From assembly GCA_035546575.1 (NCBI GenBank), contig DASZWN010000001.1, positions 1 through 47,081 on the forward strand: a stretch of 47,081 nt of DNA. The letters are read 5' to 3'. Source of the stretch: Minisyncoccota bacterium. GTDB lineage: Bacteria; Patescibacteriota; Minisyncoccia; Phycocordibacterales; SBAW01. Numbering within the stretch: the first letter of the stretch is position 1; each line of letters starts with the position of its first letter. The notes beneath the pieces were generated by a model that saw nothing but the letters and a program-made list of their open reading frames with translations, did no database searches and had not been told where the DNA came from. Of this stretch, positions 5,282 to 46,168 are shown piece after piece. The position numbers and the translations under genes were made by a program.

Positions 5282-8200
5282 TTACTGAGTGCGGTTCTGG
5301 TTGATGCCGAGGGACGGGAGTCCAACAACACCGTAACCATTCGCGTAGTCGTTAGCCGCAGCTGAGGTAACCGTACCCGTTGCGTTTGGAGACCATACGA
5401 AGTTGTAGAGCGCGTCAAGAGCCGTTGCAGTACCAACTGCTGGGCTAGCAATCTGCGAACCATCACCCATCAACGTTGTGTTGATGTTGTAGTTCGAAGC
5501 AGAGCCGTTGTAGGTCACCGTACCCTTCAGGAGGAAGTATACCGATGAGCCTCCAGGGACCTGGATCGGAGTAGAGATGGTTGTCGTCGCATACATACCA
5601 CCTGCAGTGTAGGTAGCAGCTACTGCTACACCTGCGGTTGTACCCGGAGCTGGCGTCGAGAAGCTAGAATCGCTGTACGCATAGAGCGTAGGATTTGCAA
5701 CTACGATACCAGTCGAGGATGCGAAGCTGAAGACGAACTGCTTAACACCAAGTGAGCCAGCGCTGTTTGCGGTGACATGGAACTTGATGAGCTGGCCGTC
5801 GCCGGTAACGCCACCAGTAGTGGTGTTATCGAGCGTGACGGTTGGGAAGGTCTTGTAGACAGTTACGCCTGCAACACCTGCTGTTGCACCGACGCTAACT
5901 GGCTGACCAGACGCTACGCCTGTGCCCTCTGCACCGGACGGATCAACCTTGATGATTGCTCCCTCAACGCCTGGCTGACCTACGCCAATCTGAGCAAGGT
6001 CACCCTTGATCGTGAGATTGAAGTCTGTGTTTGCCGGAAGAGCGATAGAGCTTGCAAGTGAGGTTGTTGCGTATGTACCAGTGAAGGTAGCTGTACCAAC
6101 CTGAGTTGCGCCGTTATAGAGGTAGACCGTACCAAGAGATGCTGCGGTGCCGCTAGTCAACTTGAGGCCAACCTTTGTGAGGTTGATCGACTCGTTAGCC
6201 GCGCGGAACTTGATAACACCCAAGGTGACGCCGTTCGTACCACCTGCTGCGATAGCAGCTGACGGAGACGTAGCGGCATCATAACCAACAGTGAGAGTGC
6301 CGGTGCCCGAGACGGCCTGTGCGCCAGCCGAAGTGCTGGTGATGGTCATACCGAGAGTACCGTTGGTAGGACCAACAGTGCTGTTTGATGTGTTACCAGT
6401 TGCAGTGATGCTCTGGCCGCTTACTACACCCCACGTAAACGTGCCGGTAGTACCAGACGCTACGTTGCAGGTGAGAGTAAGAGTTGTGACTGTTCCCTTC
6501 GGAACAACAAGCGAGTTGTTGAAGTTGAAGGTAGTCGGGTAAGTAGCTGCAGGTGCCCATGAGTTAGCGGCAATTACCGGTGAGTTTACCGTGTTAGAGC
6601 CGTAGTTCAGAGGCGAACCTGTACCAACTGCGCCGTTCCAGAGCTGGCAGCCGCTCAAAGTCGAAGTTGATGCACCGGCTGAGCCGATAGAATCAACCAT
6701 CATGAGCGGAAGCGAGTTGAGACGGATGTCTTCGCCAGACTGTGAAGCGTCGAGCTGCACGTTAGCAAAGACCGTATTCTGGCCGCCTGCAACGATAGAC
6801 TGCGCTGCCGGTGTTGCAGACACGCTAACCGCGAGGGTTGCGCCGCGAACCGTCATTGTGTTCATCGAGACAGTGCCAGCACTGGAGAGAGATACCGTGT
6901 TGCCGGTAGTCTGACCAGTTACATTAGTCCAAGAGCTTGGAGTCGTGCTGAGGCGGTACGTAGAGCCGTTAGCCGCACCAGTAGGAACCGTACCCTTGAG
7001 GGTATAGGTTGCAGAACCAACCGGGAAGGTGATCGTATTGCTGAACACAAGGTTGCCAGCAGTATTCTCGTCGACCGGACCGGCAACAACGCTGCCGTTC
7101 TTGTCAACAATCGATACGTTCGTGAGGAAGCCCGTAGAACCAGTAGTAGACGAGACAGCAAATGTCAGCGTCTGTACTGATACCGGCTCACCAACAAAGT
7201 TGGTAGTGAAGCCGCCGAGTACCTGGTTAGGAACGTTGATTGCAATGTTCTGCGATGCAACGCTCGATGCGTTGGTGATCGTAGTTACCGTACCGCCCTG
7301 GATAGTTACTGTAGAACCCTGGAAGAATGGCTGACCAGCAGCATATGTTCCTCCGGATACTGTACCGCTACCGACGAAGCCGGAGCGATAAGTACCAGTC
7401 GAAGGGGTTGAGCGATCCCAGCTATTTGCAGTTGGGATGATGCCGTAACCATAGGTCTGACCAACAACGTAGATGTCGGAAGCCTTGTCGATATCGAATG
7501 CTGCTACGCGACCTGAAGCGTTAGAACCAGCAATGTCACCCTTGAGGTATACATCTGCTGAGTAACCCTTCTGGACGAGCACGCCACCTGGGAATACCGA
7601 GGTGAGGTAACGACCGTCAGTCGAGGCAACAACCGGATATGAGGTGCCGTTGACGTAGGTCATGAGGTTTGCCAAGTCCGAAGACGAGACAGAACCGTTC
7701 ATGCGCCAGCGGATGCTCATTACGCGAACATCCTCAGCAGAGCCTGCCTGTACGCGAACACCAGAGAAGTTAACGCCAGTGTCACCAATGTTCTTGGTAG
7801 AAGCGTTTGCCGGATCGTACGAAGAGATGCTGAGTGTTGCTGTACCGATAGCAAGCGACGAGTTGATCGTCTGGGAAGCACCCGTAATCGGGAGCGAGCC
7901 ATTGACCGCTGCAGAGCTGTTGATAGCAACAACCTGGAGCTGTGCGATCTGACCCGAGTAGTTGTCGAGGTTAGATGCCATGTTGCCTGCAACAGTGTAA
8001 GTCATCGACTGACCCGGGTTGAGCATAAAGCTCGAACCGATGTTTGCCTGATGATTGCTGTTGAGGGTGCTTGAAACGCCGATCTGAGCGCCAGTCTGGT
8101 CCAAGAGGACGATACCGGAGAAGACCGAGTCGTTAGCAAAGCCAACGCGCTGCACCGTTACGCTGTTGATCGTCACTGCCATCGAAGAGTTGTTCGTGAG

Positions 8201-8821
8201 AGTGAAGGTCGTGAAAGGAACGCGCGATGCGCTCTCTACAGCGAGCGAGTTAGCAGGCTGTGCTGCTGCCGAAACGCTGAGACCAGGACCTGAAGGTGTG
8301 CCCGGGTTGCTAGAAGTGCCACCGCAAACAGCTGCAATAGCTGCGCGAGTAGCAGGACCAACGATACCGATCGGGTCAACATTGTTCAAAGTCTGGAACT
8401 TGATCACTGCTGCCTTAGTAGCAGGACCGAAGTAGGTTGACTCAAGACCAGGAGAGCCTGCGCCAGAGCTTGCTACCTGAGTAGCTGCCTTTGCGTTGAG
8501 GAAGACCTGGAGAGCCTTGACGTCAGCACCTGTCGAACCCTGCTGGAGGGAGCGAGAGAGCGCTGGGCAAGCACCGCCGGTGCCTGTACCTGTGCCCGTA
8601 CCAGTTGTTGCCTGGCCGTTGAGCGAGGCAGTCACATTTGCGACTGTCTGCGCATCAGCACCGAACGATTGAAGCAGCGAGATGATTGCGCTTATCTGCG
8701 ACTGCGTCAGGGCTGCCGCCTGTGCTGGTGCTGCTGCAAATGCTCCCGCGAAGAGAGAAAGTGCAACTGCGACACCCGCTACAAAAGCGACGAGCCGTGT
8801 TGAACTCTGAGTAATAGTCAT
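5282..8821 (-). CDS. Large secreted cell-surface protein with an N-terminal peptidoglycan-binding domain and a long beta-rich Thr/Ser/Gly/Ala region (S-layer/adhesin-like)
   Basis: 1179 aa. It has a signal peptide (VAFVAGVAVALSLFAGAFAAAPAQA), a (TG)5 linker, and a PG_binding_1-like segment (GSTGADVKALQVFLN...YFGPATKAAVIKFQ...GIVGPATRAAI). About 1000 aa of low-charge T/S/G/A/V-rich sequence follows, typical of Ig-like repeat surface proteins. Confidence 0.8.
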   Translation of the reverse strand: MTITQSSTRLVAFVAGVAVALSLFAGAFAAAPAQAAALTQSQISAIISLLQSFGADAQTVANVTASLNGQATTGTGTGTGTGGACPALSRSLQQGSTGADVKALQVFLNAKAATQVASSGAGSPGLESTYFGPATKAAVIKFQTLNNVDPIGIVGPATRAAIAAVCGGTSSNPGTPSGPGLSVSAAAQPANSLAVESASRVPFTTFTLTNNSSMAVTINSVTVQRVGFANDSVFSGIVLLDQTGAQIGVSSTLNSNHQANIGSSFMLNPGQSMTYTVAGNMASNLDNYSGQIAQLQVVAINSSAAVNGSLPITGASQTINSSLAIGTATLSISSYDPANASTKNIGDTGVNFSGVRVQAGSAEDVRVMSIRWRMNGSVSSSDLANLMTYVNGTSYPVVASTDGRYLTSVFPGGVLVQKGYSADVYLKGDIAGSNASGRVAAFDIDKASDIYVVGQTYGYGIIPTANSWDRSTPSTGTYRSGFVGSGTVSGGTYAAGQPFFQGSTVTIQGGTVTTITNASSVASQNIAINVPNQVLGGFTTNFVGEPVSVQTLTFAVSSTTGSTGFLTNVSIVDKNGSVVAGPVDENTAGNLVFSNTITFPVGSATYTLKGTVPTGAANGSTYRLSTTPSSWTNVTGQTTGNTVSLSSAGTVSMNTMTVRGATLAVSVSATPAAQSIVAGGQNTVFANVQLDASQSGEDIRLNSLPLMMVDSIGSAGASTSTLSGCQLWNGAVGTGSPLNYGSNTVNSPVIAANSWAPAATYPTTFNFNNSLVVPKGTVTTLTLTCNVASGTTGTFTWGVVSGQSITATGNTSNSTVGPTNGTLGMTITSTSAGAQAVSGTGTLTVGYDAATSPSAAIAAGGTNGVTLGVIKFRAANESINLTKVGLKLTSGTAASLGTVYLYNGATQVGTATFTGTYATTSLASSIALPANTDFNLTIKGDLAQIGVGQPGVEGAIIKVDPSGAEGTGVASGQPVSVGATAGVAGVTVYKTFPTVTLDNTTTGGVTGDGQLIKFHVTANSAGSLGVKQFVFSFASSTGIVVANPTLYAYSDSSFSTPAPGTTAGVAVAATYTAGGMYATTTISTPIQVPGGSSVYFLLKGTVTYNGSASNYNINTTLMGDGSQIASPAVGTATALDALYNFVWSPNATGTVTSAAANDYANGYGVVGLPSLGINQNRTQ

Positions 8822-20735: not shown

Positions 20736-22172
20736 TCAGTCTTTGCGCGGGAAAAGATTCTCCGGTTTTTTATTAGCTACGATTGCTTCTTTAAGGATAC
20801 GATTAGTCTCGGGCATAAACGGGTTGAGCATGCGGACGATTATATACAGCTCCTGTGTGAGCGCAAAAATAAGCTTCTTCCCCTCTTCGGGCTTATCTTT
20901 TACTACCTTAAATGGTTGCGTGTCGGTAATCTGCTGATCAAGCAGTTTGATACGCTCCCAGACAAAGTCGAGTGCGCGATTACTCTCGAACTTTTCGAGA
21001 GCCTCGGTATATTGCTTAGGAAACCCTACCGCCTCGGGTCGTGTACCTTCCCCAAGATGCGTCTGCGCAAGCTGCATGATACGTGCAGCCAAATTGCCGA
21101 TACCGTTGGCTAGGTCGGCATTGTAGGCAGCCTTAAAGCGCTCCATCGTAAAGTCGCTGTCATCAAACGGGTGTATGTGGCGCAGCAGGAAGTAACGCAA
21201 TGCGTCGATACCATACTCCTCGACAATTGCGAGCGGGTCGATAACATTGCCGAGCGATTTGCTCATCTTTTGTCCGCCGCTGGTGATAAAGCCGTGGTAG
21301 AGTACACGCCCTGTCTGTGGCAGCTCGGCCGACATAAGCATTGCCTGCCACATAACAGACTGGAATCGCACCTGATCTTTACCTGCTATCTGGAGCGTCT
21401 CACCGTCTTTCCAAAACTTTTTAAATAGCCCGTCTGTATCCTCCGGCCACCCAAGAGTGGAGATGTAGTTGGTGAGCGCATCAAACCACACATACATCAC
21501 CTGCGTGTCGTCGTCTGGCACCGGCACACCCCAGCTCATGCGCGAGGTTTCCCGCGAAATACTAAAGTCTTCGAGCCCAGCCTCAACAAACGTAATAGCC
21601 TCTTCTCTGCGCCAATCCGGGATAATAACGTCTTGTTTTTTGAGATAGTCGAGAACTTTGTCCTGATATGCGCTCAGTTTAAAAAAGTAGTTTTCCTCCT
21701 CGATCTCTACAGGAGTCAGGTTTGGGTGGTTGGGGCATCTGCCGTTTACCAAATCAGTTTCTTTAAGAAACATCTCATCACCCACGCAATACAGCCCCTT
21801 ATATTTCTTTTTATAAATATCACCCTTTGCAGCACAACGCTTCCATAGCTCTTGTGCTGCCGCCTTATGATGCGGGTTAGTGGTGCGGATAAAATGGAGG
21901 TCGCTATAGAGACCTAGTTTTTCTTTAAGCTCGCGGAATTTCGCTGCGTACTCGTCGACATAGCCTTGTGTCTCCTTCCCCTCCTCCGCAGCCTTCTGGA
22001 ATATTTTCTGGCCGTGCTCGTCGGTACCGGTGTTAAAAAAGACCTCTCTACCCATCAAAGTTTGGTAACGCACCAGCGCGTCCGCCTGTACCATCTCTAG
22101 CGCAAAGCCGATATGCGGCGCTGCATTTACGTACGGCAAGGTTGTCGTTAGGTAAAAAGGCTTTTTAGACAT
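20736..22172 (-). CDS. metG: Methionine--tRNA ligase (short form, no C-terminal tRNA-binding domain)
   Basis: MSKKPFYLTTTLPYVNAAPHIGFALE (HIGH-type motif) and KMSKSLGN. The start is set at the ATG at 22172. The ORF-track extension to 22325 overlaps the upstream gene and is not MetRS-like. Confidence 0.95.
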   Translation of the reverse strand: MSKKPFYLTTTLPYVNAAPHIGFALEMVQADALVRYQTLMGREVFFNTGTDEHGQKIFQKAAEEGKETQGYVDEYAAKFRELKEKLGLYSDLHFIRTTNPHHKAAAQELWKRCAAKGDIYKKKYKGLYCVGDEMFLKETDLVNGRCPNHPNLTPVEIEEENYFFKLSAYQDKVLDYLKKQDVIIPDWRREEAITFVEAGLEDFSISRETSRMSWGVPVPDDDTQVMYVWFDALTNYISTLGWPEDTDGLFKKFWKDGETLQIAGKDQVRFQSVMWQAMLMSAELPQTGRVLYHGFITSGGQKMSKSLGNVIDPLAIVEEYGIDALRYFLLRHIHPFDDSDFTMERFKAAYNADLANGIGNLAARIMQLAQTHLGEGTRPEAVGFPKQYTEALEKFESNRALDFVWERIKLLDQQITDTQPFKVVKDKPEEGKKLIFALTQELYIIVRMLNPFMPETNRILKEAIVANKKPENLFPRKD

Positions 22173-22182
22173 ATAGGTCAAC

Positions 22183-23250
22183 CTACCCCGCTGCCTTCTC
22201 CTGTGCAAGCTGGCGTGCCAGAGCGCGAGTCTTTTCTCGATCGACATCGGAGACAAACTCCTGTATTGCTCCCGCAATCGGCACCGAGAGGAGTACCCCG
22301 AGGAAGCCAAATAATTTAAAGCCAATGAGAAGCGCCAAAATAACCAAGAGCGGCGGCACGCCTACAACCTTTTTAACCACAACCGGATAGATGAGATGCG
22401 CCTCAAACTGCTGCACCAGCACGTAGAGGCCGACGACAAGCAGTGCCTCGGTAGCGCCGCCTGTACCAAAGGCGAGCGCAACAGCCGGGACCGCTGCGAT
22501 AAATTGCCCGAAGACCGGTATCAGCTCGCAGATGCCAGCGATAACCGCAAGCAAAAGCGCGTATGGCACGCCAAGGATCATAAGACCGAGATACAAGAGC
22601 ACTCCGACAATTACCGCGAGTATCAGTTGCCCTTGCATCCATTTGCCTATCTTTTCCTGGCTACGCTTCCAGAGGTGGAGTACGTAGGCCTGTTCCTTAA
22701 CTGGTGTTACCACGCGCAGGAAGTCATCGATACCTGTTTCTTGCACAGAAAAGTAGAACGAAAAGACGACAATAAGCACGAATGAAGTGACGCCGCCGAA
22801 TATTGCCGAGAGCGTGGTAAAGGCGCCACCAGTCGTGTCGGCAAGCGTTGACGAGAGATTTTTAAGGAGCTGCGCGGATGAAACCGTGTCGGCAACGCTC
22901 CCCCACGGCAAGAGCCCGTGTGTTGCGTCGGAGATATTGAGCGTGGTGAGAGTCTCGGGCAGTTTGTCGAGGAATGTAGCAGCGTCGGAGAGGACCGGCG
23001 GAATAAAGAGAAAGAGTACGGTAAACAAGACGGTGGCAACTCCCGCGTATATTGCGATAACACCCAAGAGACGGGGCACTCCGCGCCGCACAAATGCGTG
23101 TACTCCAGGCTCGATAGCTGAGGCGATAACCACAGCGGTAAGCACAATAAGCACCAAGTCGCGCAGATAAAAAACGAGTGCGGCAAGCACTATAACCAGC
23201 AGCGCCATAAAAAGGCTCGCTGGATTGATAGTGATGTTAAAATCCTTCAT
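22183..23250 (-). CDS. AI-2E family transporter (PerM/YhhT-like permease)
   Basis: 355 aa with about 8 TM helices and the family-typical C-terminal half (LILAVIVGVL...ELIPVFGQFIAAVPAVALAF...HLIYPVVVKKVVGVPPLLVILALLIG). Confidence 0.85.
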   Translation of the reverse strand: MKDFNITINPASLFMALLVIVLAALVFYLRDLVLIVLTAVVIASAIEPGVHAFVRRGVPRLLGVIAIYAGVATVLFTVLFLFIPPVLSDAATFLDKLPETLTTLNISDATHGLLPWGSVADTVSSAQLLKNLSSTLADTTGGAFTTLSAIFGGVTSFVLIVVFSFYFSVQETGIDDFLRVVTPVKEQAYVLHLWKRSQEKIGKWMQGQLILAVIVGVLLYLGLMILGVPYALLLAVIAGICELIPVFGQFIAAVPAVALAFGTGGATEALLVVGLYVLVQQFEAHLIYPVVVKKVVGVPPLLVILALLIGFKLFGFLGVLLSVPIAGAIQEFVSDVDREKTRALARQLAQEKAAG

Positions 23251-25575: not shown

Positions 25576-26913
25576 TTATACTCCTTTTATAGCAGAAGTC
25601 AAGTACCCTGAAAGCTCTTGTACTGTAAGGCGCTTTTGCTCGCCGGTGTCTCTATCGCGCACGGTTACGGTGTCTTTAAGCTCGGGCTTTTCGCCAAGCG
25701 TGTCGAAGTCGATCGTGATGCACCACGGCGTGCCTATTTCGTCTTGGCGGCGATAGCGCTTGCCCACGTTGCCGTTGTCATCAAATACAATCTGCGGGAT
25801 CTCTTTCTTGAGCATCGCGTAAATCTCGCGAGCCTTAGCTACAAGCTCGGGCTTATTTTTGAGGAGCGGAAAGACTGCGGCCTTAATAGGCGCTACAGCG
25901 GGAGCGAATTTGAGATACGTGCGAGTCTCACCGCCCAGAGTGTCTTCTGTGTATGCGCTTGCAAGGACTGCGAGTACCGTTCGGTCTACACCAAGCGACG
26001 GCTCAATTACATGCGGCACAAAAGGCTCTTCGCCCTCATCTCGGTACGAGAGGTCTTTTGCAGATCCCCTGGCATGGGCCGAAAGATCAAAGTCGGTACG
26101 ATATGCCAAGCCGTAGAGCTCTTTGCGGCCAAACGGAAAGTCGAACTCAAAGTCGATCGTGCGTTTAGAGTAATGTGCTCGATCTCCATCGGCAACCTCT
26201 AATTCATGCACCGCATCTTTTTTGATACCGACTGCCAAAATAAAATTGAGTATTACCTGGCGCCATTCCTCAAACTTCCCTTCCCAATCAGATGGGCGTA
26301 CAAAGTATTCAACCTCCATCTGCTCGAACTCGCGCGAGCGGAACACGAAGTCGCGCGGCGCTATTTCGTTGCGGAATGCTTTGCCGATCTGCGCCAAACC
26401 GAACGGAAGTTTTGGGTGCAAAGCGTCGAGCACATTCTTAAAGTTAACAAACATGCCACCCGCAGTCTCGGGGCGCAAGTACGATACGCTCGACTCGTCT
26501 TCGGTAGCGCCAACATGCGTCTTAAACATCATGTTGAACTGGCGTGCCTCTCCCAATTTGCCTCCGCAATCTGGACAGATACTCCCCTCTACATGGTCGG
26601 CGCGGAAACGGTGTCTGCATTTTGCGCACTCAACTAATGGATCGGAAAATCCGCTCACATGTCCTGAGGATTCCCACACCCTTGGGTGCATGAGTATTGC
26701 AGCATCTACCCCATACATGTCGTCGCGCGAGTCGACAAACATCTTCCACCATATGTTTTTTATATTGTTCTTGAGCGCAACGCCAAGAGGCCCGTAGTCC
26801 CAGGTGCCGGCCAAACCGCCGTAGATTTCTGACCCTTGGAATACAAACCCGCGGCGCTTGCACAGCGAGATTATTTTTTCCATCAAATCCATCTGATTTT
26901 CTTCCTGGGCCAT
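25576..26913 (-). CDS. glyQS: Glycine--tRNA ligase (homodimeric class II type)
   Basis: 445 aa: ISLCKRRGFVFQGSEIYGGLAGTWDYGPLG, FRNEIAPRDFVFRSREFEQMEVEYF, and a C-terminal anticodon-binding domain. Confidence 0.96.
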   Translation of the reverse strand: MAQEENQMDLMEKIISLCKRRGFVFQGSEIYGGLAGTWDYGPLGVALKNNIKNIWWKMFVDSRDDMYGVDAAILMHPRVWESSGHVSGFSDPLVECAKCRHRFRADHVEGSICPDCGGKLGEARQFNMMFKTHVGATEDESSVSYLRPETAGGMFVNFKNVLDALHPKLPFGLAQIGKAFRNEIAPRDFVFRSREFEQMEVEYFVRPSDWEGKFEEWRQVILNFILAVGIKKDAVHELEVADGDRAHYSKRTIDFEFDFPFGRKELYGLAYRTDFDLSAHARGSAKDLSYRDEGEEPFVPHVIEPSLGVDRTVLAVLASAYTEDTLGGETRTYLKFAPAVAPIKAAVFPLLKNKPELVAKAREIYAMLKKEIPQIVFDDNGNVGKRYRRQDEIGTPWCITIDFDTLGEKPELKDTVTVRDRDTGEQKRLTVQELSGYLTSAIKGV

Positions 26914-26925
26914 ATATTGTTATTA

Positions 26926-28983
26926 CTATTTCGCGACCACAGTGTCCATACCGGCACTGCCGTCTATCGTGTGCGTGGTCGGGCCGTCGACATTTGCCCC
27001 TACCTGCACCTGCGCGTAGCGATCTTGGCCGGAGGCCGAGGTCGGGCCCGTGAGTGCTGGGATAGTGCCTACTTGGGAGCTACTTGGGCTTATTGCTACT
27101 TGGAACGATGCCTGGCGCGCCGCGGTACTATAGCCGACGCCGGCTTTTATATCGCCGATATTCCACGTTACGGTACGGCTGCCCGGGTCGTACGTGACGC
27201 CGCTCCCCGACTGTGCGGCAACAAAGGTCACGTACGGCGGCAACACCGTTTGCACACTGGTGTTTGCAACAGTATTGGCAGAATTTTTAACCGTCCAGGT
27301 AATACCGTAGGTGGTGGTCTGCTCTACACGCGGTGGCACCGGTCCGGTGTTATTGAATACACCCGATCGGCTCGACTGCGCCGTAAGCGAAAGAGCGGAA
27401 GCGAGGACAAGCTTTGCGCTCGCAGCAGAAGCAATCGTGTCAGGCACGCCATTGTCGTTTTGACGAGTTGCACGCACGGTGAGATTAAGTGTGATGGTCG
27501 GGTTGGTGATAAGCGTGCCCTGCGCTGCAGGCGGGAGTGTTGCGAACGAGAATTGGAACGTGCCTGTAGCGCCCGGCGCGACAGTGCCCAGACTCGCATC
27601 GCGATCTTTTGTCCAGACGATCGTATTATTGCTCGACTGGTAGAACCCGCTTTGCGAATTGATCGAGTTTTTATCGACCGAGGGCCCGCTGAACGAGAGC
27701 TCGAGCTGCAAATCAGATATTGAATCGCTCAGGTTATTCTGCCAGCTCACCTGGCCCTGGAGTGTCCCTCCCGCGCTGACCGAAATATTTTGCCCCGTCT
27801 TCCCTTCTATTGAGACCGAGCCCGTGATGAATGGGTGTTCAACCGAGAGCGTCTGGGGCACGGTGAGGAACGGTACTCGCACATGCGTATCGGTCGGGTC
27901 GGAGTTTGAGCCTGCCAAGAATCTGAACACGCGCTCGTCGCCATCGGCAGCATCGATGCTGCCGGTAATATGTATCACTTTGGTAGTACCTGGCGCGAGC
28001 GTACCAAAGCGCCAGAGCGTACCGCCAGCTGCGGCTGCAGGATTGGTGTTTGAAACCGAAAAACCAAATGGGTATTGCGCCTCGATCGTAACATTGTCGA
28101 CCGGCGTTGTGGCATTTGAGCGCACCGTTATGTCGATGCCAAACGAGTCGCCGGCAATAACCTTGCTTGGCGCATCGATGCTGACCGAGACCGGTGCGGA
28201 GCCGATGGTAAAGAGCGCCTGACCCTGCTTCTCGAACACAGCATTGGAGCCCGAGACGCTGTACTCAAGCCGCGCAGCAATAGCCTCTTGCGCGCCTTCC
28301 TGGCCGTAGAGGAGTGCCGAGAATGTCTTTTTTACTTGCTCACCCGATGTAATAGTACCTATCGAGATGCGGTCATGCGTGAGCGACTTTGTCGGATCCG
28401 CAGCAGATCGAGCGCCGTCTGGATAATCGATCACTAAGTCTGCCAACTCGAGCGATGTGGTATTGCGGTTCGTAATAATCACTTCAAAATCTGCTTCTTT
28501 GCCGCCATCTATTAGCGAAGGCGCGATAACCTCGACGTCGATATTTTGCGGCGAAGTAGTGTTGACTCCTCCATAAAACAACAGTGCTGAGATGCCTGCA
28601 GCAATAATAAAAAACAAAATGGAGCCGAAAAAGAATTTTGTTGAGAGTGACATGCGTTTTTTTGGTTCTACGGGTGTAAGCGGCGTAGGAGTTATCACTG
28701 GCGCGTTAGGGTCGGTATACTCCCATGCTTGCGCAGCGGCGCTCTTTGGAGGCTGAGGGGGTTCTGAGAATTCTGATTTTGCAGCGTCCCCGTTGTGTCC
28801 TGCAGCGGAGAAATCAGAATTCTCAGAACCCTCGCCGGGAGCATGTATCTCGCTCCAGGAGGTTGGTGCGTGCACCTCATTGGGCGACATCGGCGAGCGC
28901 TCCTCGGGCTTGGCGGCCTTGGCGCCACGTGCATAGAGACGACTTTTGAGCTTCTCGACAGCCCCCTTCTCCTCTTTTGCCAT
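26926..28983 (-). CDS. Type-II membrane-anchored surface protein with repeated beta-sandwich (CARDB/DUF11-like) domains
   Basis: 685 aa: a ~110-aa charged/Pro-rich cytoplasmic tail, one TM helix (FFFGSILFFIIAAGISALLFYGG), then about 5 Ig-like modules rich in T/S/V/G. Confidence 0.7.
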   Translation of the reverse strand: MAKEEKGAVEKLKSRLYARGAKAAKPEERSPMSPNEVHAPTSWSEIHAPGEGSENSDFSAAGHNGDAAKSEFSEPPQPPKSAAAQAWEYTDPNAPVITPTPLTPVEPKKRMSLSTKFFFGSILFFIIAAGISALLFYGGVNTTSPQNIDVEVIAPSLIDGGKEADFEVIITNRNTTSLELADLVIDYPDGARSAADPTKSLTHDRISIGTITSGEQVKKTFSALLYGQEGAQEAIAARLEYSVSGSNAVFEKQGQALFTIGSAPVSVSIDAPSKVIAGDSFGIDITVRSNATTPVDNVTIEAQYPFGFSVSNTNPAAAAGGTLWRFGTLAPGTTKVIHITGSIDAADGDERVFRFLAGSNSDPTDTHVRVPFLTVPQTLSVEHPFITGSVSIEGKTGQNISVSAGGTLQGQVSWQNNLSDSISDLQLELSFSGPSVDKNSINSQSGFYQSSNNTIVWTKDRDASLGTVAPGATGTFQFSFATLPPAAQGTLITNPTITLNLTVRATRQNDNGVPDTIASAASAKLVLASALSLTAQSSRSGVFNNTGPVPPRVEQTTTYGITWTVKNSANTVANTSVQTVLPPYVTFVAAQSGSGVTYDPGSRTVTWNIGDIKAGVGYSTAARQASFQVAISPSSSQVGTIPALTGPTSASGQDRYAQVQVGANVDGPTTHTIDGSAGMDTVVAK
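28759..28831. repeat. 21-bp perfect inverted repeat inside the coding region of the 26926..28983 gene
   Basis: GGGTTCTGAGAATTCTGATTT (~28759-28779) and its exact reverse complement AAATCAGAATTCTCAGAACCC (~28811-28831), separated by a 31-nt spacer. Each arm contains a GAATTC core. Confidence 0.8.
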
Positions 28984-29008: not shown

Positions 29009-29593
29009 TTAGAGTCCGGTTGCGGTGAGAGAGTCGTTAATTGCTTTAAGCAGCAGCGCTCGAGATGCTTCCGCCTCTGCCTGGAGCTCGATCGAAAAGA
29101 AATCTTGCTCTATAAATGGTTGCAGCTCCGGCGTCTGCGGCAAGTACCCCAAATGCGAGACAATCCTGAGCACAAGCACTGTCTCGATGCTCTGCACAGT
29201 TGCACCTTGGCTGCGAGAAAGAGCGCTGAGACCTTCGGCCACTGTCTCATATAGCGCTGTGTTGTACTCCTCGCCATGGATAAGACGCATGAGTAGCCGT
29301 ACGATCCGCCCCGCTGCCTGCCGCTTTTCGGTCGAGATATCACCTGCGCGCCACTCGTCGACTGCGCCTACGGCGCCAGTGAGCTTCCACTCGTTTTTGC
29401 CGCGGATAAAAGAGTACGTACCACTTGAGAGAGGCTCGATGCTATAACGCAGTTTTGACGCCTCGCGCCGGGCGCTGCGCGCTACAGCCTTAACAAGCCC
29501 GAGCTCGCGCGTGAGTATAGCAACAAGCGTGTTAGCCTCGCCTAGGCCTTTTTTGCCAAGCACGACTCCGTCGCTTACAAACAGTTTGTGCAT
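29009..29593 (-). CDS. recO: DNA repair protein RecO (short form)
   Basis: 194 aa with an N-terminal OB fold (VSDGVVLGKKGLGEANTLVAILTRELGLVKAVARSAR...SKLR). It lies immediately downstream of ileS (1-nt gap). Confidence 0.7.
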   Translation of the reverse strand: MHKLFVSDGVVLGKKGLGEANTLVAILTRELGLVKAVARSARREASKLRYSIEPLSSGTYSFIRGKNEWKLTGAVGAVDEWRAGDISTEKRQAAGRIVRLLMRLIHGEEYNTALYETVAEGLSALSRSQGATVQSIETVLVLRIVSHLGYLPQTPELQPFIEQDFFSIELQAEAEASRALLLKAINDSLTATGL

Positions 29594-29594
29594 A

Positions 29595-32500
29595 TTATTC
29601 TGTCGAGATGTTTAAGCTCCCCAACCCGGTGCCTTGCATGATCTCGTCGCGATGCATCTGCGCAATTACTTTTTCCTCGGGCGTCACTACAAGCGTGTAG
29701 TCCGGTCGGTCGGTGATAGTGAGGTTTTGCTCTTTGCGCCACTCCTGTATCCGGCGCATCAACGTGCGCACGGTCCCCTCTTCTTGCAACTCTTGTGTAA
29801 GAACGGTATCAAGTTTTGGCTCAACAAGAGTTGGGTCCTCCAAAATAGTTTTTACGTTTATTTCGTCGCTGATTATGTGTGTGGTATTCGAAACGTCAGA
29901 GAGTTTAGGAATGGTAAGTGAGGCAAGAGGCTGACGGACCTTGATTCCTGCCTGCTCTCGCAACTCAAGCCCTTTTGATGATAACGCGCGTGTAAGTTCC
30001 ATCTCTTTAATAAGAGCCTCGTCTATAGCAGTCTCGGCCGGCCAGTTGCTCAAGTGCACGCTGTCTTGGTCGCCATTTTCCTTCATTGCTTGGTAGAGCG
30101 TCTCTGCATAAAACGGCATCACAGGCGCCATAACGTGCGCAACAGTGTAGAGCACGTAGCGCAGTGTTGAGAGCGCCGCTTTTTTGTCCTCAGTATTCTC
30201 CTTAAACCGGTCGCGAGAACGGCGCAGATACCAGGTTGAAAGGTCGTCTATAAACCCGGCGAGCGGACGCGCTGCAACATCGAGCTCATATTTCTCGAAT
30301 CCATCTGTTGTACTGCGCACGAGTTCCCCTAAACGCGAGATAATCCAGCGGTCGAGCACATGGGCGCTTTGCGTGCTGCGCTCGGTACCATCTGCGTAGA
30401 GCACATAGAAAGAACGCACGTTGTCGAGCCGCATGAGCAATTTTTTATTAACATCCTCTACTCCGCGCAACACAAAGTTAAGGTCCTCGCCGCGGATTAC
30501 CGGAGAAGAAAGCAGATAGTAGCGCAAAGCGTCCACCCCCGGACCATCTGCCACATCCATCGGGTCGGGATAATTTTTAAGCCGCTTGCTCATCTTTTGT
30601 CCATCTTGCGCAAGCACGAGCCCGTTTACGATCACGTTTTTGTACGGACTGCGACCGAAGAGCGCAGTTGAAAGTACGATGAGCGAGTAGAACCACCCGC
30701 GCGTCTGGTCGAGGCCCTCAGCGATAAAGTCGGCCGGAAATCCTTTGGGCATCAGGCCAAATACGCGGCGCGGATCAAACGTATCTTTCTCAAAAGGATA
30801 GTGGTTGGAGGCAAACGGCATCGAGCCCGACTCAAACCAGCAGTCAAACACATCGGGCACACGCTCCCACTGCCCACTTGCCGGGTCGCCCATTGGCACC
30901 TCGTCGATATACGGGCGGTGCAAGTCGAGGTCGTAATCGGCATTATGCGGGAATGGAGTAAATGGGAGTTCTTTAACGCTTGCTTTGTCTGGCAGCGTTT
31001 CTATTTTTGAGCGCAACTCCTCGGAAGTAGTGCGATCAGCAACCGAGGAAAGCAGCCAGATAGGGTTACCGTGAGTAACAATCAGAATATTTTTATTTAC
31101 ATAGCGCCGCTCGATCTCAAACAAAAAGTCTCCCATTCGACGCCGTACATCCATAAAACTCTCCCCTCCTTCCGGCGCATGCACAAACTGCTCGGCGTTG
31201 CTGATAGCTGCATGGAACTCGGCCGATGTTTTGCCGGAAAAGATGCCAAACTCAAACTCTCGCAAGCGTTGGTCTACCATTACCGCTTGGTCAGGAAGGC
31301 CCAACTCCTTTTGCACAATCCCCGCTGTCTCCCGGGTACGCAGAATCGGAGATGTGATGATCATGTCGATTTGCTTGCTCTTTAAGCTCTCGGCTGCTTT
31401 TGCCACTTGCCCTCTCCCTGTTTCAGTAAGGTGGTTGTCTGGTCTGCCGGTCGAGTCGAGCCTGTCTTCAACATTTCCGATAGCCTCGCCATGGCGCATC
31501 ACAAAGTAGGTGTTGCCTGAGCGCCGCACGTTTTTGAGCAGTTCCTCGACCGAGCCCATTACCTTAATATCTTTTGTTTTTTTGTTGCGCCAGACCGGCA
31601 GCGGCGCCCCCCAGTAGCGTGTGCGCGAGATAGCCCAGTCCGGTGCAGACTCAAGACCGTTGCGGAAACGCCCCTTCCCCACGTGCTCTGGCACCCATTC
31701 TACTTTCTGGTTTTCTGCGAGCAGATTCTTTTTGAGTGCGGAGACTTTTACAAACCATGAGTTTGCTGCCCAGTTGAGGAGCGGCGTGTCGCAGCGCCAG
31801 CAGTGCGGGTACGAGTGCGTGATCTTTTCGTCTTTAAATAACAGGCCGCGGCCTTTCAGATTCTCTACTATAAGCGCGTCGGTCTCAGTGTGGCGTCCTT
31901 TTGGCTTAACCGGCAGCCCTGCAAAGTCGGCAACCGTTGCAATAAATTTCCCCTCATCGGTTACGTGATGAATGAGCGGGATCTTTTCTTTCTGTGCCAG
32001 CTCCAGGTCCTCGGCACCATAGGCCGGCGCCAAATGCACGATGCCGGTACCGTCCTCGAGTGTTACATATGGCGCGGCGTATACCTTCCATGCGTGCGTG
32101 CGGTGTTTGTGGAGCTCGTCCTTAAAGTACTCAAACGGCGGAGCATAACTCTTGCCTACCAGCTCCTTTCCCAGCATCTCGCCCACGATATCTAGCGACT
32201 CGCCAAGCACTTTGTGTGCGAGCTCCTTTGCGACAACTACAAACTCGTCCCCTATTTTTACTTTTACGTACACTGCGTCAGCTTTTACCGCAGCCGCCAC
32301 GTTGCCCGGGAGCGTCCATGGCGTCGTAGTCCATATAAGGAGAGAGGTATTCTTTTCATCAACAAGAGGCAGACGTACTGTTACTGCAAAATCTTTTATG
32401 TCTTGATAACCCTGCGCCACCTCAAAGTTAGAGAGCGTGGTGCCGCAGCGCGGGCATAGATGCATCGCTTTAAAACCCTCGTAAATAAGACCTTTGCTGT

Positions 32501-33041
32501 AGAGCTTTTGGAACGACCACCACACCGACTCCGTGTACGTAGAGTCCATGGTTTTGTAATCGTCTTCCATGTCGGCCCAGCGACCCATGCGCGGGACGAT
32601 GCGCTTCCAGTCGTTAACATCTTTCATGATGCTCGCGCGCGCGGCCTCGTTGAATTTGCCGATGCCGTACGCCTCGATATCGCGCTTGGTTTTAAATCCG
32701 AGCTCTTTCTCAACGAGGTTTTCTACCGGCAGACCGTGGCAATCCCAGCCCCAGCGGCGCGCCACACGGTAGCCCTGCATCGTGCGGTAGCGCGGGATAG
32801 CATCTTTTATGGCAGAGGCCAAAATGTGGCCGTAGTGCGGCAAACCGTTGGCAAACGGCGGCCCGTCATAAAATACAAACTCGCCTTTTGGCGAAGGCTT
32901 TTCTAAGCTGCGTTCAAATATCTTATGCTCATTCCAAAAAGCCAGCACGCCCTCCTCGCGCTTAGCGGTGTCGCTCTTTGCAGAGTCATTCTCTGGCGCA
33001 TGATGCATCTCTTCCCCGCCCTGCTTCCGGTCATCAACCAT
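29595..33041 (-). CDS. ileS: Isoleucine--tRNA ligase (eukaryote-like/type 2) with an inserted histidine-phosphatase domain
   Basis: PPFANGLPHYGHIL (HIGH), a CP1 editing region (TTTPWTLPGN), WAISRTRYWGAPLPVW, DVFDCWFESGSMPF and KMSKRLKN (KMSKS). At 1148 aa it is about 190 aa longer than expected because of the insert listed below. Confidence 0.95.
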   Translation of the reverse strand: MVDDRKQGGEEMHHAPENDSAKSDTAKREEGVLAFWNEHKIFERSLEKPSPKGEFVFYDGPPFANGLPHYGHILASAIKDAIPRYRTMQGYRVARRWGWDCHGLPVENLVEKELGFKTKRDIEAYGIGKFNEAARASIMKDVNDWKRIVPRMGRWADMEDDYKTMDSTYTESVWWSFQKLYSKGLIYEGFKAMHLCPRCGTTLSNFEVAQGYQDIKDFAVTVRLPLVDEKNTSLLIWTTTPWTLPGNVAAAVKADAVYVKVKIGDEFVVVAKELAHKVLGESLDIVGEMLGKELVGKSYAPPFEYFKDELHKHRTHAWKVYAAPYVTLEDGTGIVHLAPAYGAEDLELAQKEKIPLIHHVTDEGKFIATVADFAGLPVKPKGRHTETDALIVENLKGRGLLFKDEKITHSYPHCWRCDTPLLNWAANSWFVKVSALKKNLLAENQKVEWVPEHVGKGRFRNGLESAPDWAISRTRYWGAPLPVWRNKKTKDIKVMGSVEELLKNVRRSGNTYFVMRHGEAIGNVEDRLDSTGRPDNHLTETGRGQVAKAAESLKSKQIDMIITSPILRTRETAGIVQKELGLPDQAVMVDQRLREFEFGIFSGKTSAEFHAAISNAEQFVHAPEGGESFMDVRRRMGDFLFEIERRYVNKNILIVTHGNPIWLLSSVADRTTSEELRSKIETLPDKASVKELPFTPFPHNADYDLDLHRPYIDEVPMGDPASGQWERVPDVFDCWFESGSMPFASNHYPFEKDTFDPRRVFGLMPKGFPADFIAEGLDQTRGWFYSLIVLSTALFGRSPYKNVIVNGLVLAQDGQKMSKRLKNYPDPMDVADGPGVDALRYYLLSSPVIRGEDLNFVLRGVEDVNKKLLMRLDNVRSFYVLYADGTERSTQSAHVLDRWIISRLGELVRSTTDGFEKYELDVAARPLAGFIDDLSTWYLRRSRDRFKENTEDKKAALSTLRYVLYTVAHVMAPVMPFYAETLYQAMKENGDQDSVHLSNWPAETAIDEALIKEMELTRALSSKGLELREQAGIKVRQPLASLTIPKLSDVSNTTHIISDEINVKTILEDPTLVEPKLDTVLTQELQEEGTVRTLMRRIQEWRKEQNLTITDRPDYTLVVTPEEKVIAQMHRDEIMQGTGLGSLNISTE
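30942..31520 (-). other. Histidine phosphatase (phosphoglycerate-mutase-like, RHG family) domain inserted in IleRS (aa ~508-700)
   Basis: YFVMRHGEA...HLTETGRGQ...IITSPILRTRETA...LREFEFGIFSG...APEGGESFMDVRRR...ILIVTHGNP. These are the hallmark RHGE, S-P-x-x-R-x-x-x-T, E-x-x-x-G, GES and xHG motifs, in frame and flanked by IleRS core sequence on both sides. Confidence 0.8.
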
Positions 33042-33055
33042 ATTAAAAGACTATA

Positions 33056-34705
33056 CTACATCTCCTCCGGTGTTGGGATGCCTAAAACTTGGAGACCTTG
33101 TGCAAGAGTGTTCTCAATCGCCTTAACCACTGCAAGCGCGCGGCTTGTTATTGCTCCGTCGACAATCAAGCGTTCGCTCGCATACCAACTATTAAACATT
33201 CCGGCCAGCTCCGTAAGATAGGTGGCCACATAATGCGGCTCGAGCTCATGTACCGTGCGCTCAACCACTTGCGGGAAGTGCACGATAAGCCGCTCTATCG
33301 GCATCGGGCCTGCGGGCTCCGGGTCGACAACTTTTGCACTTCTTGCATTACGCAAGAGTGCGCGAGCACGCACCAACGCATACTGCACATAGGGTCCAGA
33401 ATCGCCTTCAAGCGAGAGCGACTTCTCCGGATCAAAAACGATATCCTTGCCGGAGCTTTGCTTGAGCACCGCGTATTTGATCGCTCCTACTGCCACCTGC
33501 TGTGCTGTGTTGTGCGCATCTTTGAGCTCGCGCCCTTCCATCTTTGTATTTGTTTCCCCCATCAAATCCATCAGGAGCGACTCGCCGGTAATGACATTGC
33601 CCACTCTAGAAGACATTTTGCCCTCGGCAAAACGCATCATGCCGTGCGAGCGATGCATGAGTTTGTTTGCTATCTCTGGGAACACCAGACCAGCGGCTTG
33701 GAACACAACCTTAAAATATTCATTCTGCTCATTGGCAGTTACATATATATAGTGGTCTGATTGTCCGCGTTGCTCCTTCTCGACAATGAGCCCTAGGTCT
33801 TTTGCCTCATAAGTTGGGAGGCCAAGTTTGTTGATAAACACGCGGGTGTGGAGGCCGTACTTCTCGCCATGAAATACGATCGCGCCTTCGCTAGCCTCAA
33901 AAATCTCCGGGCGGGCGCGCACGATCTCTAAACCTTTGTTAGCCGTCTCGCTCTCAAAAAAGTAGAGGTCGAACTTAGTGCCGAGTATCTTGTAGATCTC
34001 TTCAAAGTGCTCAAGCGAGAGTGTGCGGCCTTTTTTATAGAGTTCGTTTACGCGCTCGTCAGTCTTGTCATAAATCTTTTTATTGAGCGCATCGATTGCC
34101 AGCTTGTCCTCCGGCTTCTCTTCATAGCGAGTAGCGCCCTCAACATAGGCGCGACTTATATCCTCGATAGTCGGATTCTCGATATTCTTCTCGAGCAAGA
34201 CAAAGAGCGCTTTTGCAACATGCGGACCAACATCTCCTTGATAATTAGCGCGCAATACTTCTGCCCCCGAATGCTCAAGCGCACGCGCGATACTCTCGCC
34301 TATTGCGTTGCTCATAAGGTGGCCTATGTGGAATTGTTTGAACGGGTTTGGGTCCGTGTACTCGACCATCACCTTCTTTCCTTTGTATATAGTATTGTTT
34401 CCCCACTCCTTGCCATGTGCCTCATGCACAACCTCTTTAACCACAGACCCTGAGAGCGTAAAGTTAATGAACCCCGGCCCCGCAACCTCGATTTTTTTAA
34501 TACCCTCGATTGCGAGGTTGCTTGCGAGCTCGTCGGCCACCTCTTTTGGATTCTTTTTAAGAATCTTTGCCGCAATAAGTGCCGCGTTAGTAGCGTAGTC
34601 GCCATGATCCATCGAGCCTGGCCGCTCTAGAGCAAAAGCCACACCCTCGGCCCCCATAGCCGTAAGCGCCACCGTTATAGCTTGCTCAATATCTTGCCGA
34701 ATCAT
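33056..34705 (-). CDS. argS: Arginine--tRNA ligase
   Basis: N-terminal Arg_tRNA_synt_N-like domain, FKQFHIGHLMSNAIGESIAR (HIGH), a DALR anticodon-binding domain, and a terminal M. The ATG at 34705 is preferred over the TTG at 34711. Confidence 0.96.
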   Translation of the reverse strand: MIRQDIEQAITVALTAMGAEGVAFALERPGSMDHGDYATNAALIAAKILKKNPKEVADELASNLAIEGIKKIEVAGPGFINFTLSGSVVKEVVHEAHGKEWGNNTIYKGKKVMVEYTDPNPFKQFHIGHLMSNAIGESIARALEHSGAEVLRANYQGDVGPHVAKALFVLLEKNIENPTIEDISRAYVEGATRYEEKPEDKLAIDALNKKIYDKTDERVNELYKKGRTLSLEHFEEIYKILGTKFDLYFFESETANKGLEIVRARPEIFEASEGAIVFHGEKYGLHTRVFINKLGLPTYEAKDLGLIVEKEQRGQSDHYIYVTANEQNEYFKVVFQAAGLVFPEIANKLMHRSHGMMRFAEGKMSSRVGNVITGESLLMDLMGETNTKMEGRELKDAHNTAQQVAVGAIKYAVLKQSSGKDIVFDPEKSLSLEGDSGPYVQYALVRARALLRNARSAKVVDPEPAGPMPIERLIVHFPQVVERTVHELEPHYVATYLTELAGMFNSWYASERLIVDGAITSRALAVVKAIENTLAQGLQVLGIPTPEEM

Positions 34706-34750
34706 GCACAAAGAGTAACAGATTTTATAAAAAGGAGAACTAACCTCAGA

Positions 34751-46063: not shown

Positions 46064-46095
46064 ACCACATTCAGTCTAGCACTCTACGTTCTCTG

Positions 46096-46168
46096 GGCGG
46101 CTACAGGGAATCGAACCCTGATCGAGAGCTCCACAAGCTCCAGTGTTAACCGTTACACCATAGCCGCC
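46096..46168 (-). tRNA. tRNA-His (anticodon GTG) with a genomically encoded G-1; CCA not fully encoded
   Basis: Hand fold of the minus strand: G(-1), GCGGCTA, TG, GTGT-aacggtta-ACAC, T, GGAGC-ttGTGga-GCTCT, cgat, CAGGG-ttcgatt-CCCTG, TAGCCGC, C73. It gives a perfect acceptor stem, a G-1:C73 pair, U33 and a purine at 37. Confidence 0.9.

Follow-up and report, generated by a model that had tools for sequence, protein, structure and literature searches.

A predicted histidine phosphatase nested in the CP3 hairpin of a type-2 isoleucyl-tRNA synthetase from the Minisyncoccia

The window analysed here is a stretch of 47,081 nucleotides from a Minisyncoccota bacterium (positions 1 to 47,081 of contig DASZWN010000001.1, assembly GCA_035546575.1). 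Its gene of interest is ileS, at 29595..33041 on the minus strand, as are all other features of the window located below; it is an open reading frame (ORF) of 1148 amino acids (aa) for a type-2 isoleucyl-tRNA synthetase (IleRS) with a branch-1 histidine phosphatase of about 200 residues nested in it (aa 503-704, 30930..31535). Aminoacyl-tRNA synthetases (aaRSs) are among the most conserved enzymes, and the extra domains of the bacterial ones are usually editing, tRNA-binding or zinc modules. Judged from its sequence, this gene is predicted to encode a single polypeptide with two enzymes and two intact active sites. Taken singly, the type-2 IleRS that acts as host and the small histidine phosphatase that is its guest are ordinary; what is unusual is their combination and the nesting. 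A first-pass annotation of the window had placed such a domain at 30942-31520, within 15 nucleotides of the refined boundaries. The flanks that it quoted, WGAPLPVWRNKKTKDIKVMGSVEELLKN and DLDLHRPYIDEV...VPDVFDCWFESGSMPF, are present in the translated ORF, and so are the motifs FVMRHGEA, LTETGRGQ, ITSPILRTRETA, EFEFGIFSG, PEGGESF and IVTHGNP. As it had also described, the 1148-aa ORF has no stops or frame changes, and the HYGH and KMSKR signatures flank the insert.

The host part is predicted to be a complete, editing-competent type-2 IleRS. The protein scores 889.5 bits against TIGR00392, the NCBIfam equivalog model of ileS (cut-off 621.4), with the match divided into two stretches around the insert. 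Pfam likewise splits tRNA-synt_1 in two, with His_Phos_1 between the halves and Anticodon_1 and a C-terminal DUF5915 following; the earlier expectation of His_Phos_1 at about aa 510-670 within tRNA-synt_1 agrees with the observed match at aa 513-692. The nearest solved structures of the whole protein are 1ILE (E 7.7e-215) and 8C8U (E 8.5e-213). The N-terminal part (aa 1-502, 31536..33041) contains the first Rossmann half, the CP core with a CxxC...CxxC zinc site, the CP1 editing domain, CP2 and the first strand of CP3. It carries the HIGH signature as HYGH (aa 69-72, 32826-32837), the editing motif WTTTPWT (aa 237-243, 32313-32333) and the two CP-core zinc pairs CPRC (32445-32456) and CWRC (31791-31802), the residues of all four being invariant across the IleRS family of relatives. 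The CP1 editing residues H336 and D345 are invariant in the family as well. After the insert come the second half of CP3, up to the DCWFESG strand (30825..30929), and the C-terminal part (29595..30824) with the second Rossmann half, the anticodon-binding domain, DUF5915 and the stop codon. The KMSKS signature is KMSKR (aa 816-820, 30582-30596). Thus the HIGH, KMSKS and editing signatures are all found.

No second ileS is encoded in the 47-kb window. The protein falls outside the NCBIfam family ileS_w_GNAT (NF040702; 329 bits against a cut-off of 1999) and has no GNAT domain; its relatives, at 218-348 bits, fall outside it likewise. Many insert-bearing relatives are named "class I tRNA ligase family protein" by NCBI, though the window protein passes TIGR00392.

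The insertion site could be defined by alignment to the Thermus thermophilus enzyme. Residues 26-502 of the window protein correspond to 11-477 of 1ILE, and residues 705-1017 to 488-805, so that about 10 residues in 1ILE are equivalent to about 200 in the window protein. The first reading, that the two flanks are adjacent in canonical type-2 IleRSs, is borne out by these 10 residues. The site is the tip of the CP3 hairpin, which in T. thermophilus IleRS forms a second zinc knuckle. The two halves of this Cys4 knuckle read WVCQACGK ... ELACACGG in T. thermophilus and VWECEGCQ ... LTCPVCSG in Priestia megaterium IleRS2. CP3 is the name used for the knuckle element in structural papers; it is a peripheral subdomain of the Rossmann fold, and its topology varies among the Ca, Tt and Sa IleRSs (PMC7191050). 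Since the flanks are the two halves of this knuckle, the phosphatase sits at a peripheral hairpin tip, outside the active-site core. Hence the first-pass claim of an insertion into the catalytic core stands as to in-frame nesting within IleRS and falls as to the core.

The ancestral cysteine ligands are lost in the window protein, where the knuckle positions read VWRNKKTKD ... VPMGDPASGQW and VPMGDPASGQWER in the second half of CP3 occupies the place of ELACACGGTMRR in the T. thermophilus enzyme. The same loss is seen in 191 of 277 relatives, which make up the subclade of the window protein, whereas 71 of the 277 retain a CxxC...CxC/CxxC pattern around the insert. RAAC4_OD1_1 is one of the latter, as are genomes that bear the labels Yonath-, Wolfe- and Vogelbacteria. 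Because these basal relatives have both knuckle and insert, the knuckle was still intact when the domain entered it, and its ligands disappeared afterwards. For the same reason a replacement of the knuckle by the insert was considered and rejected.

The GC content is continuous across the insert, and its GC at third codon positions (GC3), 0.539, is at the low edge of the range of same-sized pieces of ileS yet inside it; no flanking repeats were found around it. A conserved peptide lies at either end, S-G-N before the first strand (aa 508-510, 31512-31520) and F-x-P-[FY]-P-H-N after the last (aa 694-700, 30942-30962). Among close relatives of the window protein these peptides are more conserved than most of the phosphatase, and less so in the wider family. 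The H-N of the second peptide is followed by A, E or D, not by C, S or T. An intein or mobile element is ruled out by the confident phosphatase fold, the nucleophile-free junctions and the missing repeats. A target-site duplication was also considered: HMMER had aligned the P. megaterium segment SIKELQKH to both sides of the insert (SVEELLKN and SVKELPFT). This is a coincidence, because the C-side serine occurs in only 8 of 120 sequences and the two DNA stretches, placed side by side, have no evident similarity.

The nested domain matches His_Phos_1 (PF00300) at aa 513-692 with an E value of 2.8e-36 and 125.5 bits (cut-off 21.7), covering positions 2-179 of the 194 in the profile; a missing His_Phos match would have told against the first-pass proposal. 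Conservation was scored in 346 domain copies from 336 proteins or loci, with gaps of incomplete copies left out of the counts. The RHG motif is formed by R516, H517, the presumed phospho-acceptor, and G518 (31488..31496), R and H each being present in 340 of 340 copies. The second phosphate-binding arginine, R568 in the SPxxR motif (31338..31340), occurs in all 346, and the second catalytic histidine, H657 (31071..31073), in 340 of 342. The presumed proton donor, E595 (31257..31259), aligns with E89 of the Escherichia coli 2,3-bisphosphoglycerate-dependent phosphoglycerate mutase (dPGM); its position is acidic in 341 of 345 copies (E in 328, D in 13). A cap subdomain of two short helices follows at about aa 596-626 (31164..31256), the helices being predicted by AlphaFold2 at aa 606-612 and 615-620. 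The branch-1 catalytic core of RHG, two arginines, second histidine and acidic donor is therefore complete in the window protein. Further conserved positions, N523, LT..G, S564, T572, D590, R592, E627 and R635, are usual in the superfamily. The structural identification first made is thus right: a type-2 IleRS that looks functional holds, nested in frame, a branch-1 histidine phosphatase complete in its catalytic hallmarks.

The rest of the insert evolves faster than its host, with a mean column conservation of 0.57 against 0.81 for the IleRS core, and the domain copies overall have diverged to 25-40% identity while the catalytic residues remain essentially invariant. Such an invariant catalytic set amid fast-evolving surroundings is the pattern predicted for selection on catalysis, and the phosphatase core is under purifying selection. 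The fallback of the first-pass annotation, a degenerate structural module, is contradicted by the near-invariant catalytic residues in the 346 copies. In a version of it the domain would be a filler that has lost its enzymatic meaning and stabilises CP3 after loss of the zinc knuckle, as the four missing cysteines in the window's subclade and the fast evolution of the insert might suggest. Basal relatives that keep both the knuckle and the insert do not fit this, IleRS relatives work with a short CP3, and all five catalytic residues have stayed essentially unchanged despite deep divergence, in each tandem copy too. A filler is very improbable.

Structure prediction agrees with the assignment. 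AlphaFold2 folded the domain alone with high confidence (predicted local distance difference test, pLDDT, 92.9; predicted template modelling score, pTM, 0.90) into a dPGM-type alpha/beta fold. Foldseek returned 319 PDB matches at E<=0.001, and all 50 listed belong to the histidine phosphatase superfamily. The best are the glucosyl-3-phosphoglycerate phosphatase-type protein GpgP (6S2Q, 4PZ9) and PhoE (1H2E) at a template modelling (TM) score of about 0.76; the neighbours at TM 0.70-0.77 are GpgP Rv2419c, PhoE, the riboflavin-pathway HFP, phosphoserine phosphatase and CobC. Among proteins of solved structure, PhoE (E 9e-16), TIGAR and GpgP come closest to it in sequence. The suggestion that AlphaFold would show a discrete domain holds for the domain alone; its projection from the Rossmann fold and the position of its active site with respect to the path of the tRNA could not be read, the full-length model having a pTM of 0.38 with a poor Rossmann core and an unusable orientation. 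The insert is the best-predicted part of that model (pLDDT 82-95). The poor full-length result probably comes from the shallow alignment of 46 close sequences. Taken together, the sequence and the models indicate that this is almost certainly a real, catalytically intact nested phosphatase.

What the domain is not can be stated from the NCBIfam models, each score being given with its cut-off. It falls short of the 2,3-bisphosphoglycerate-dependent mutase pgm_1 (TIGR01258; 28.9 bits against 81.7), of dPGM_arch (NF038349; 86.2 against 225), which is the second-best NCBIfam match, and of CobC alpha-ribazole phosphatase (TIGR03162; 81.8 against 162.9). It also falls short of SixA phosphohistidine phosphatase (TIGR00249; 36.7 against 74.5, over the N-terminal 76 residues only), of PspA (68.7 against 350) and of the RNase H/acid phosphatase (NF005567, PRK07238; 102.6 against 326), and no RNase H domain is present in the protein. 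Relatives that have lost the cap resemble SixA in size only. In a comparison with E. coli GpmA, whose reference sequence is identical to 1E58 (numbered from Met1 = 1), residues R90, Y92 and K100 align with F596, F598 and S606, and the segment with RR116/117 and the C-terminal tail have no counterpart. With the mutase residues absent and the cut-offs missed, the domain is a phosphatase-type member and not a canonical mutase.

These results bear on a further reading, by which the insert would supply the cell with the phosphoglycerate mutase (PGM) that its glycolysis seems to lack. The idea was prompted by the report of Jaffe et al. that no PGM was detected in some Parcubacteria clades (PMC7304191). 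In its favour the domain belongs to the dPGM superfamily with dPGM_arch as second-best match, and no free-standing His_Phos relative was found in the window or in 921 kb around ileS genes. The low scores against both mutase models, the absence of the substrate-binding residues R90, Y92, K100 and R116/R117 and of the C-terminal tail on which mutase activity depends, and the deletion of the cap in many lineages make it highly doubtful.

The arrangement is widespread among relatives. All 120 of the best 90%-identity clusters for the window protein, drawn from NCBI, JGI, ENA and Logan, carry both PF00300 and PF00133 (62-71% identity, 1022-1240 aa). A second search, with the remotest full-length member as its query (P0219, 42% identical to the window protein in the core), gave 118 insert-bearing clusters among the best 120, and more than 230 90%-identity clusters were listed overall. 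When the insert with 40-45 residues of flank per side was searched against 1.84 billion 50%-identity representatives, 214 were matched at E<=1e-30, and nearly all of the best 150 span both junctions. Among contigs with one genome per species, at least 578 stretches encode relatives; in each of the best 80 the match extends across the query, at 43-73% identity. Labels of the species representatives are Adler-, Nomura-, Kaiser-, Yonath-, Wolfe-, Zambryski- and Vogelbacteria, Paceibacterota, Minisyncoccia and RAAC4_OD1_1. The search from the distant member added Jorgensen-, Harrison-, Specht-, Doudna- and Pacebacteria labels and a UniRef entry (2015 Wolfebacteria genome). The groups known as OD1, Parcubacteria or Paceibacteria are now the class Minisyncoccia (PMC13293708). 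Insert-bearing homologues thus occur across the class, which answers the proposed check on phyletic spread, and the arrangement is ancient and vertically inherited across the Minisyncoccia (Parcubacteria/Paceibacteria).

Some matches carry other labels: Spirochaetia (L059), Baltobacteraceae (P0307, P0339), Binatia (P0311) and, in many Third Party Annotation bins, "uncultured Candidatus Saccharibacteria". The labels from outside the candidate phyla radiation (CPR), which are on short contigs, and the generic ones are probably binning contamination or placeholder naming in public metagenome-assembled genomes.

An assembly chimera or a merger of two genes by sequencing error was also considered, for which the only pointer is the insert GC3 at the low edge of the range for the gene. 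The same in-register junctions recur in hundreds of independent assemblies from four sources, the KMSKR motif and the anticodon domain follow in frame, and the composition shows neither break nor repeats; a chimera is therefore excluded with near certainty. The first-pass annotation had also allowed that the insertion might be a catalogued, widespread subtype. Widespread it is, but no NCBIfam model describes an IleRS with a nested phosphatase, and full-text literature searches, beyond whose reach lay subscription journals and the InterPro and UniProt architecture pages, found no published description. This agrees with its statement that no such IleRS was known to it. As the sequences have been public since 2013-2015 with precomputed Pfam hits, the arrangement is undescribed rather than undiscovered.

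The relatives vary in the number and the form of the phosphatase domains. In some IleRSs Pfam finds 2 to 4 His_Phos_1 stretches. Complete two-copy IleRSs of 1468-1489 aa occur in Logan, JGI and ENA data (P0222, P0275, P0276, P0278); tandem copies are seen also in fragments (P0204, P0239, P0263), and a single ENA fragment (P0200) has, provisionally, at least 4 copies. Tandem copies are 25-37% identical to each other and have orthologues of their own at 54-66% and about 40% identity, so the duplication is old. Every complete tandem copy retains the R-H-R-E-H set. A second insertion site is used in three proteins, P0178 (aa 862-1061), P0231 (aa 428-635) and P0260, in addition to the CP3 one. The loop concerned comes directly before the conserved LDRWI helix, with which the anticodon-binding domain begins.

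The cap is also variable. About 12% of the copies (42 of 346, including 35 of 120 close relatives) lack some 30 residues after the catalytic glutamate, which comprise the two cap helices and the GGES motif, and retain the catalytic set (for example P0045, P0033, P0060, P0011, P0052 and P0116). Since the residual linkers differ and the cap-less proteins are scattered over a neighbour-joining tree of the IleRS core, the loss has been recurrent.

Finally, two relatives have no insert and a short canonical CP3 tip, P0284 (982 aa) and P0285 (1008 aa). P0284 is encoded on a 516-kb contig (L081, 10001-12949) and again in an independent Logan assembly (L082, 877-3825). Both proteins are 61-66% identical in the core to the insert-bearing P0219, which is as close as the insert-bearing relatives of the latter. 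No His_Phos gene lies within 10 kb of ileS in the P0284 genome. The existence of such clean insert-less relatives means that IleRS does not need the insert. P0284 has an RNase H gene upstream of ileS with one small gene between; a neighbourhood link to RNase H was rejected, as only 1 of 80 other loci has it.

One IleRS-like ORF is aberrant. P0186, on an 11-kb JGI contig, lacks the C-terminal half of IleRS and has a REP/IS200-type tyrosine transposase (aa 326-472) inside CP1, a His_Phos domain at 680-854 and a GNAT domain at 935-1063. It may be a rearranged or decaying copy.

What the phosphatase does in the cell is best explained, with about an even chance of being right as a whole, as the work of an autonomous phosphomonoesterase tethered to IleRS; for the autonomy of the domain by itself the chances are even or a little short of that. 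Histidine phosphatases hydrolyse phosphomonoesters through a phospho-histidine, with arginines and histidine binding the phosphate and an acidic residue acting as the acid. By analogy with this chemistry, the domain would hydrolyse a phosphomonoester through a phospho-His517 intermediate, R516, R568 and H657 holding the phosphate and E595 donating the proton. The IleRS would charge tRNA-Ile as usual, with the phosphatase projecting from its surface on a two-strand stalk. The most likely link between the two would be tethering, that is, obligatory co-expression and co-localisation with an essential, constitutive enzyme in very small genomes, and this is favoured over substrate channelling with the aminoacylation site. 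In genomes below 1 Mb, nesting in such a protein would guarantee expression and retention. The tandem copies, the second site, the recurrent deletion of the cap, the acidity of the domain and its clean loss in some lineages speak against a domain whose geometry is tightly coupled to the aminoacylation site. With a median isoelectric point of 6.25 and a median net charge of -2 it is mildly acidic, and this charge, the variable copy number, the two sites and the dispensability sit badly with RNA binding or with a geometry adapted to aminoacylation.

Three observations weigh against tethering of an autonomous enzyme. First, the use of two sites in IleRS and the absence of the domain from the three other aaRSs of the window (ArgRS, MetRS and a class II enzyme, all plain) suggest a link specific to IleRS. 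Second, the conserved junction peptides suggest a fixed orientation or packing on IleRS as against a loose tether. Third, the recurrent loss of the cap with the core kept would fit an exposed active site and a macromolecular substrate; SixA, PGAM5 and Sts-1 have exposed active sites and act on macromolecular or protein substrates.

They lead to an alternative in which the domain is a translation-linked phosphatase for a macromolecule, something that IleRS binds or is. It might remove a 3'-phosphate, a 2',3'-cyclic phosphate or a toxin-added phosphate or pyrophosphate from the CCA end of tRNA, or it might reverse an inhibitory phosphorylation of IleRS or a partner by a HipA-type kinase; in both cases IleRS would carry its own repair or antitoxin function. 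The entry of the domain at two independent sites of one enzyme, the conserved junctions and the repeated loss of a small-molecule cap over an intact catalytic core all fit such a role, and the top NCBIfam neighbour is the phosphatase half of an RNase H/acid phosphatase. CP3 is, moreover, among the Rossmann-fold insertions near the acceptor-binding side (PMC7191050). The domain is however acidic and not basic, and a copy number of 0 to at least 4 and an IleRS position that depends on lineage clash with a precise geometry. PADLOC defence models do not match the protein, and nothing ties the domain to tRNA directly. Histidine phosphatases, moreover, are not known to act on RNA ends. On balance a macromolecular substrate in this broad sense is unlikely, if a serious candidate, and a phosphatase wired to translation through the tRNA CCA end (3'-phosphorylated, cyclic or toxin-pyrophosphorylated) or through IleRS or a partner phosphorylated by a toxin kinase is distinctly unlikely. 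If true, this IleRS would be the first aaRS to carry a phospho-repair or antitoxin activity within itself, IleRS being a platform that recruited the module twice and repeated cap loss opening the active site to bulky substrates. Ap4A and alarmones, named alongside tRNA ends as possible substrates in the first-pass annotation, are not phosphomonoesters, and it is phosphomonoesters that are the chemistry of the superfamily.

The rigid-looking conserved junctions, together with the location of the insert in the catalytic domain, 110 residues before KMSKR, could also be taken to mean that the domain is a sensor. It would bind, and slowly turn over, a glycolytic or nucleotide phosphoester and tune IleRS allosterically, coupling translation to the energy state of the cell, and the sparse, glycolysis-centred metabolism of Parcubacteria (PMC7304191; PMC13293708) would suit this. 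Tandem and second-site copies and loss of the cap are a misfit with a single defined ligand, and insert-less relatives exist, so a sensor is improbable.

Other features of the window were noted. Four aaRS genes, for MetRS, a class II enzyme with an HGTP anticodon domain, IleRS and ArgRS, lie within 14 kb (20736-22325, 25576-26913, 29595-33041 and 33056-34711). The genes argS, ileS and recO (29009-29593) are spaced by 14 and 1 nucleotides and so look like one operon. The first 1028 positions of a bacterial 23S rRNA gene (1-1071, 793 bits) run off the left edge, and a tRNA-His gene (GTG) is near the right edge (46095-46167). Two large ORFs look like typical CPR surface proteins, one of 1179 aa (5282-8821) whose sole domain is a peptidoglycan-binding one at aa 97-162, and one of 685 aa (26926-28983) with DUF11 repeats and a probable membrane anchor.

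The significance of the arrangement is that a complete enzyme of an unrelated superfamily, its active site apparently preserved, lies inside the catalytic domain of an essential synthetase. It occurs throughout a major class of bacteria, largely uncultured, in which lineages have doubled the domain, taken it up at a second site, trimmed it or, occasionally, lost it. The relatives form a natural series (no copy, one copy, two or more; with and without cap; with and without zinc) for asking why a synthetase recruits a catalytic partner. They may point to an unrecognised need for a phosphatase in genome-reduced episymbionts. A member of the class, Minisyncoccus, is now in culture (PMC13293708), which makes experiments possible. 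The CP3 zinc hairpin offers itself as a permissive site for IleRS engineering. There is also a warning for annotation, as metabolic reconstructions based on hidden Markov models can count the domain as a "phosphoglycerate mutase family" gene.

Comparison with known systems begins with the host. The type-2 IleRSs of T. thermophilus (1ILE) and P. megaterium (IleRS2, 8C8U) are homologous to the window protein over their full length and share with it the HIGH and KMSKS signatures, the CP1 editing motifs, the CP-core zinc site, the anticodon domain and a DUF5915-type C-terminus. The window protein differs in about 200 extra residues at the tip of CP3, a second enzyme, and in the loss of the CP3 zinc ligands in its subclade; the basal relatives share the CxxC...CxC knuckle with type-2 IleRS.

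For the guest, the closest characterised proteins are PhoE (YhfR) of Geobacillus stearothermophilus (1EBB, 1H2E; E 9e-16) and GpgP Rv2419c (4PZ9, 6S2Q; E 6.5e-12), with structural TM scores of 0.74-0.77 and 28-29% identity. They have the same size and the same R-H-R-E-H set as the insert, and PhoE has the same "G-K-T" after the catalytic glutamate. Both are free-standing whereas the insert is nested, and many relatives of the insert have no cap. At only about 29% identity, their substrate specificity is not transferable to the insert. E. coli GpmA (1E58) has the same superfamily and fold, and the RHG motif, the asparagine, the second arginine, the glutamate and the second histidine align; the insert differs from it in lacking R90, Y92, K100, RR116/117, the dPGM-specific insertion and the C-terminal tail.

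Two known types of fusion come near the arrangement as a whole. The bifunctional RNase H/acid phosphatase (PRK07238; Rv2228c type) is the best NCBIfam neighbour, the match being to its C-terminal phosphatase half. There a histidine phosphatase is fused end-to-end to a nucleic-acid enzyme, whereas here it is nested and has another partner. The insertions of class Ia synthetases, such as the variable CP3 elements and ileS_w_GNAT, follow the same principle, in that surface insertions of the Rossmann fold tolerate or recruit modules. In contrast to these, the module in the window protein is a complete enzyme from an unrelated superfamily, with an active site that is predicted to be intact.

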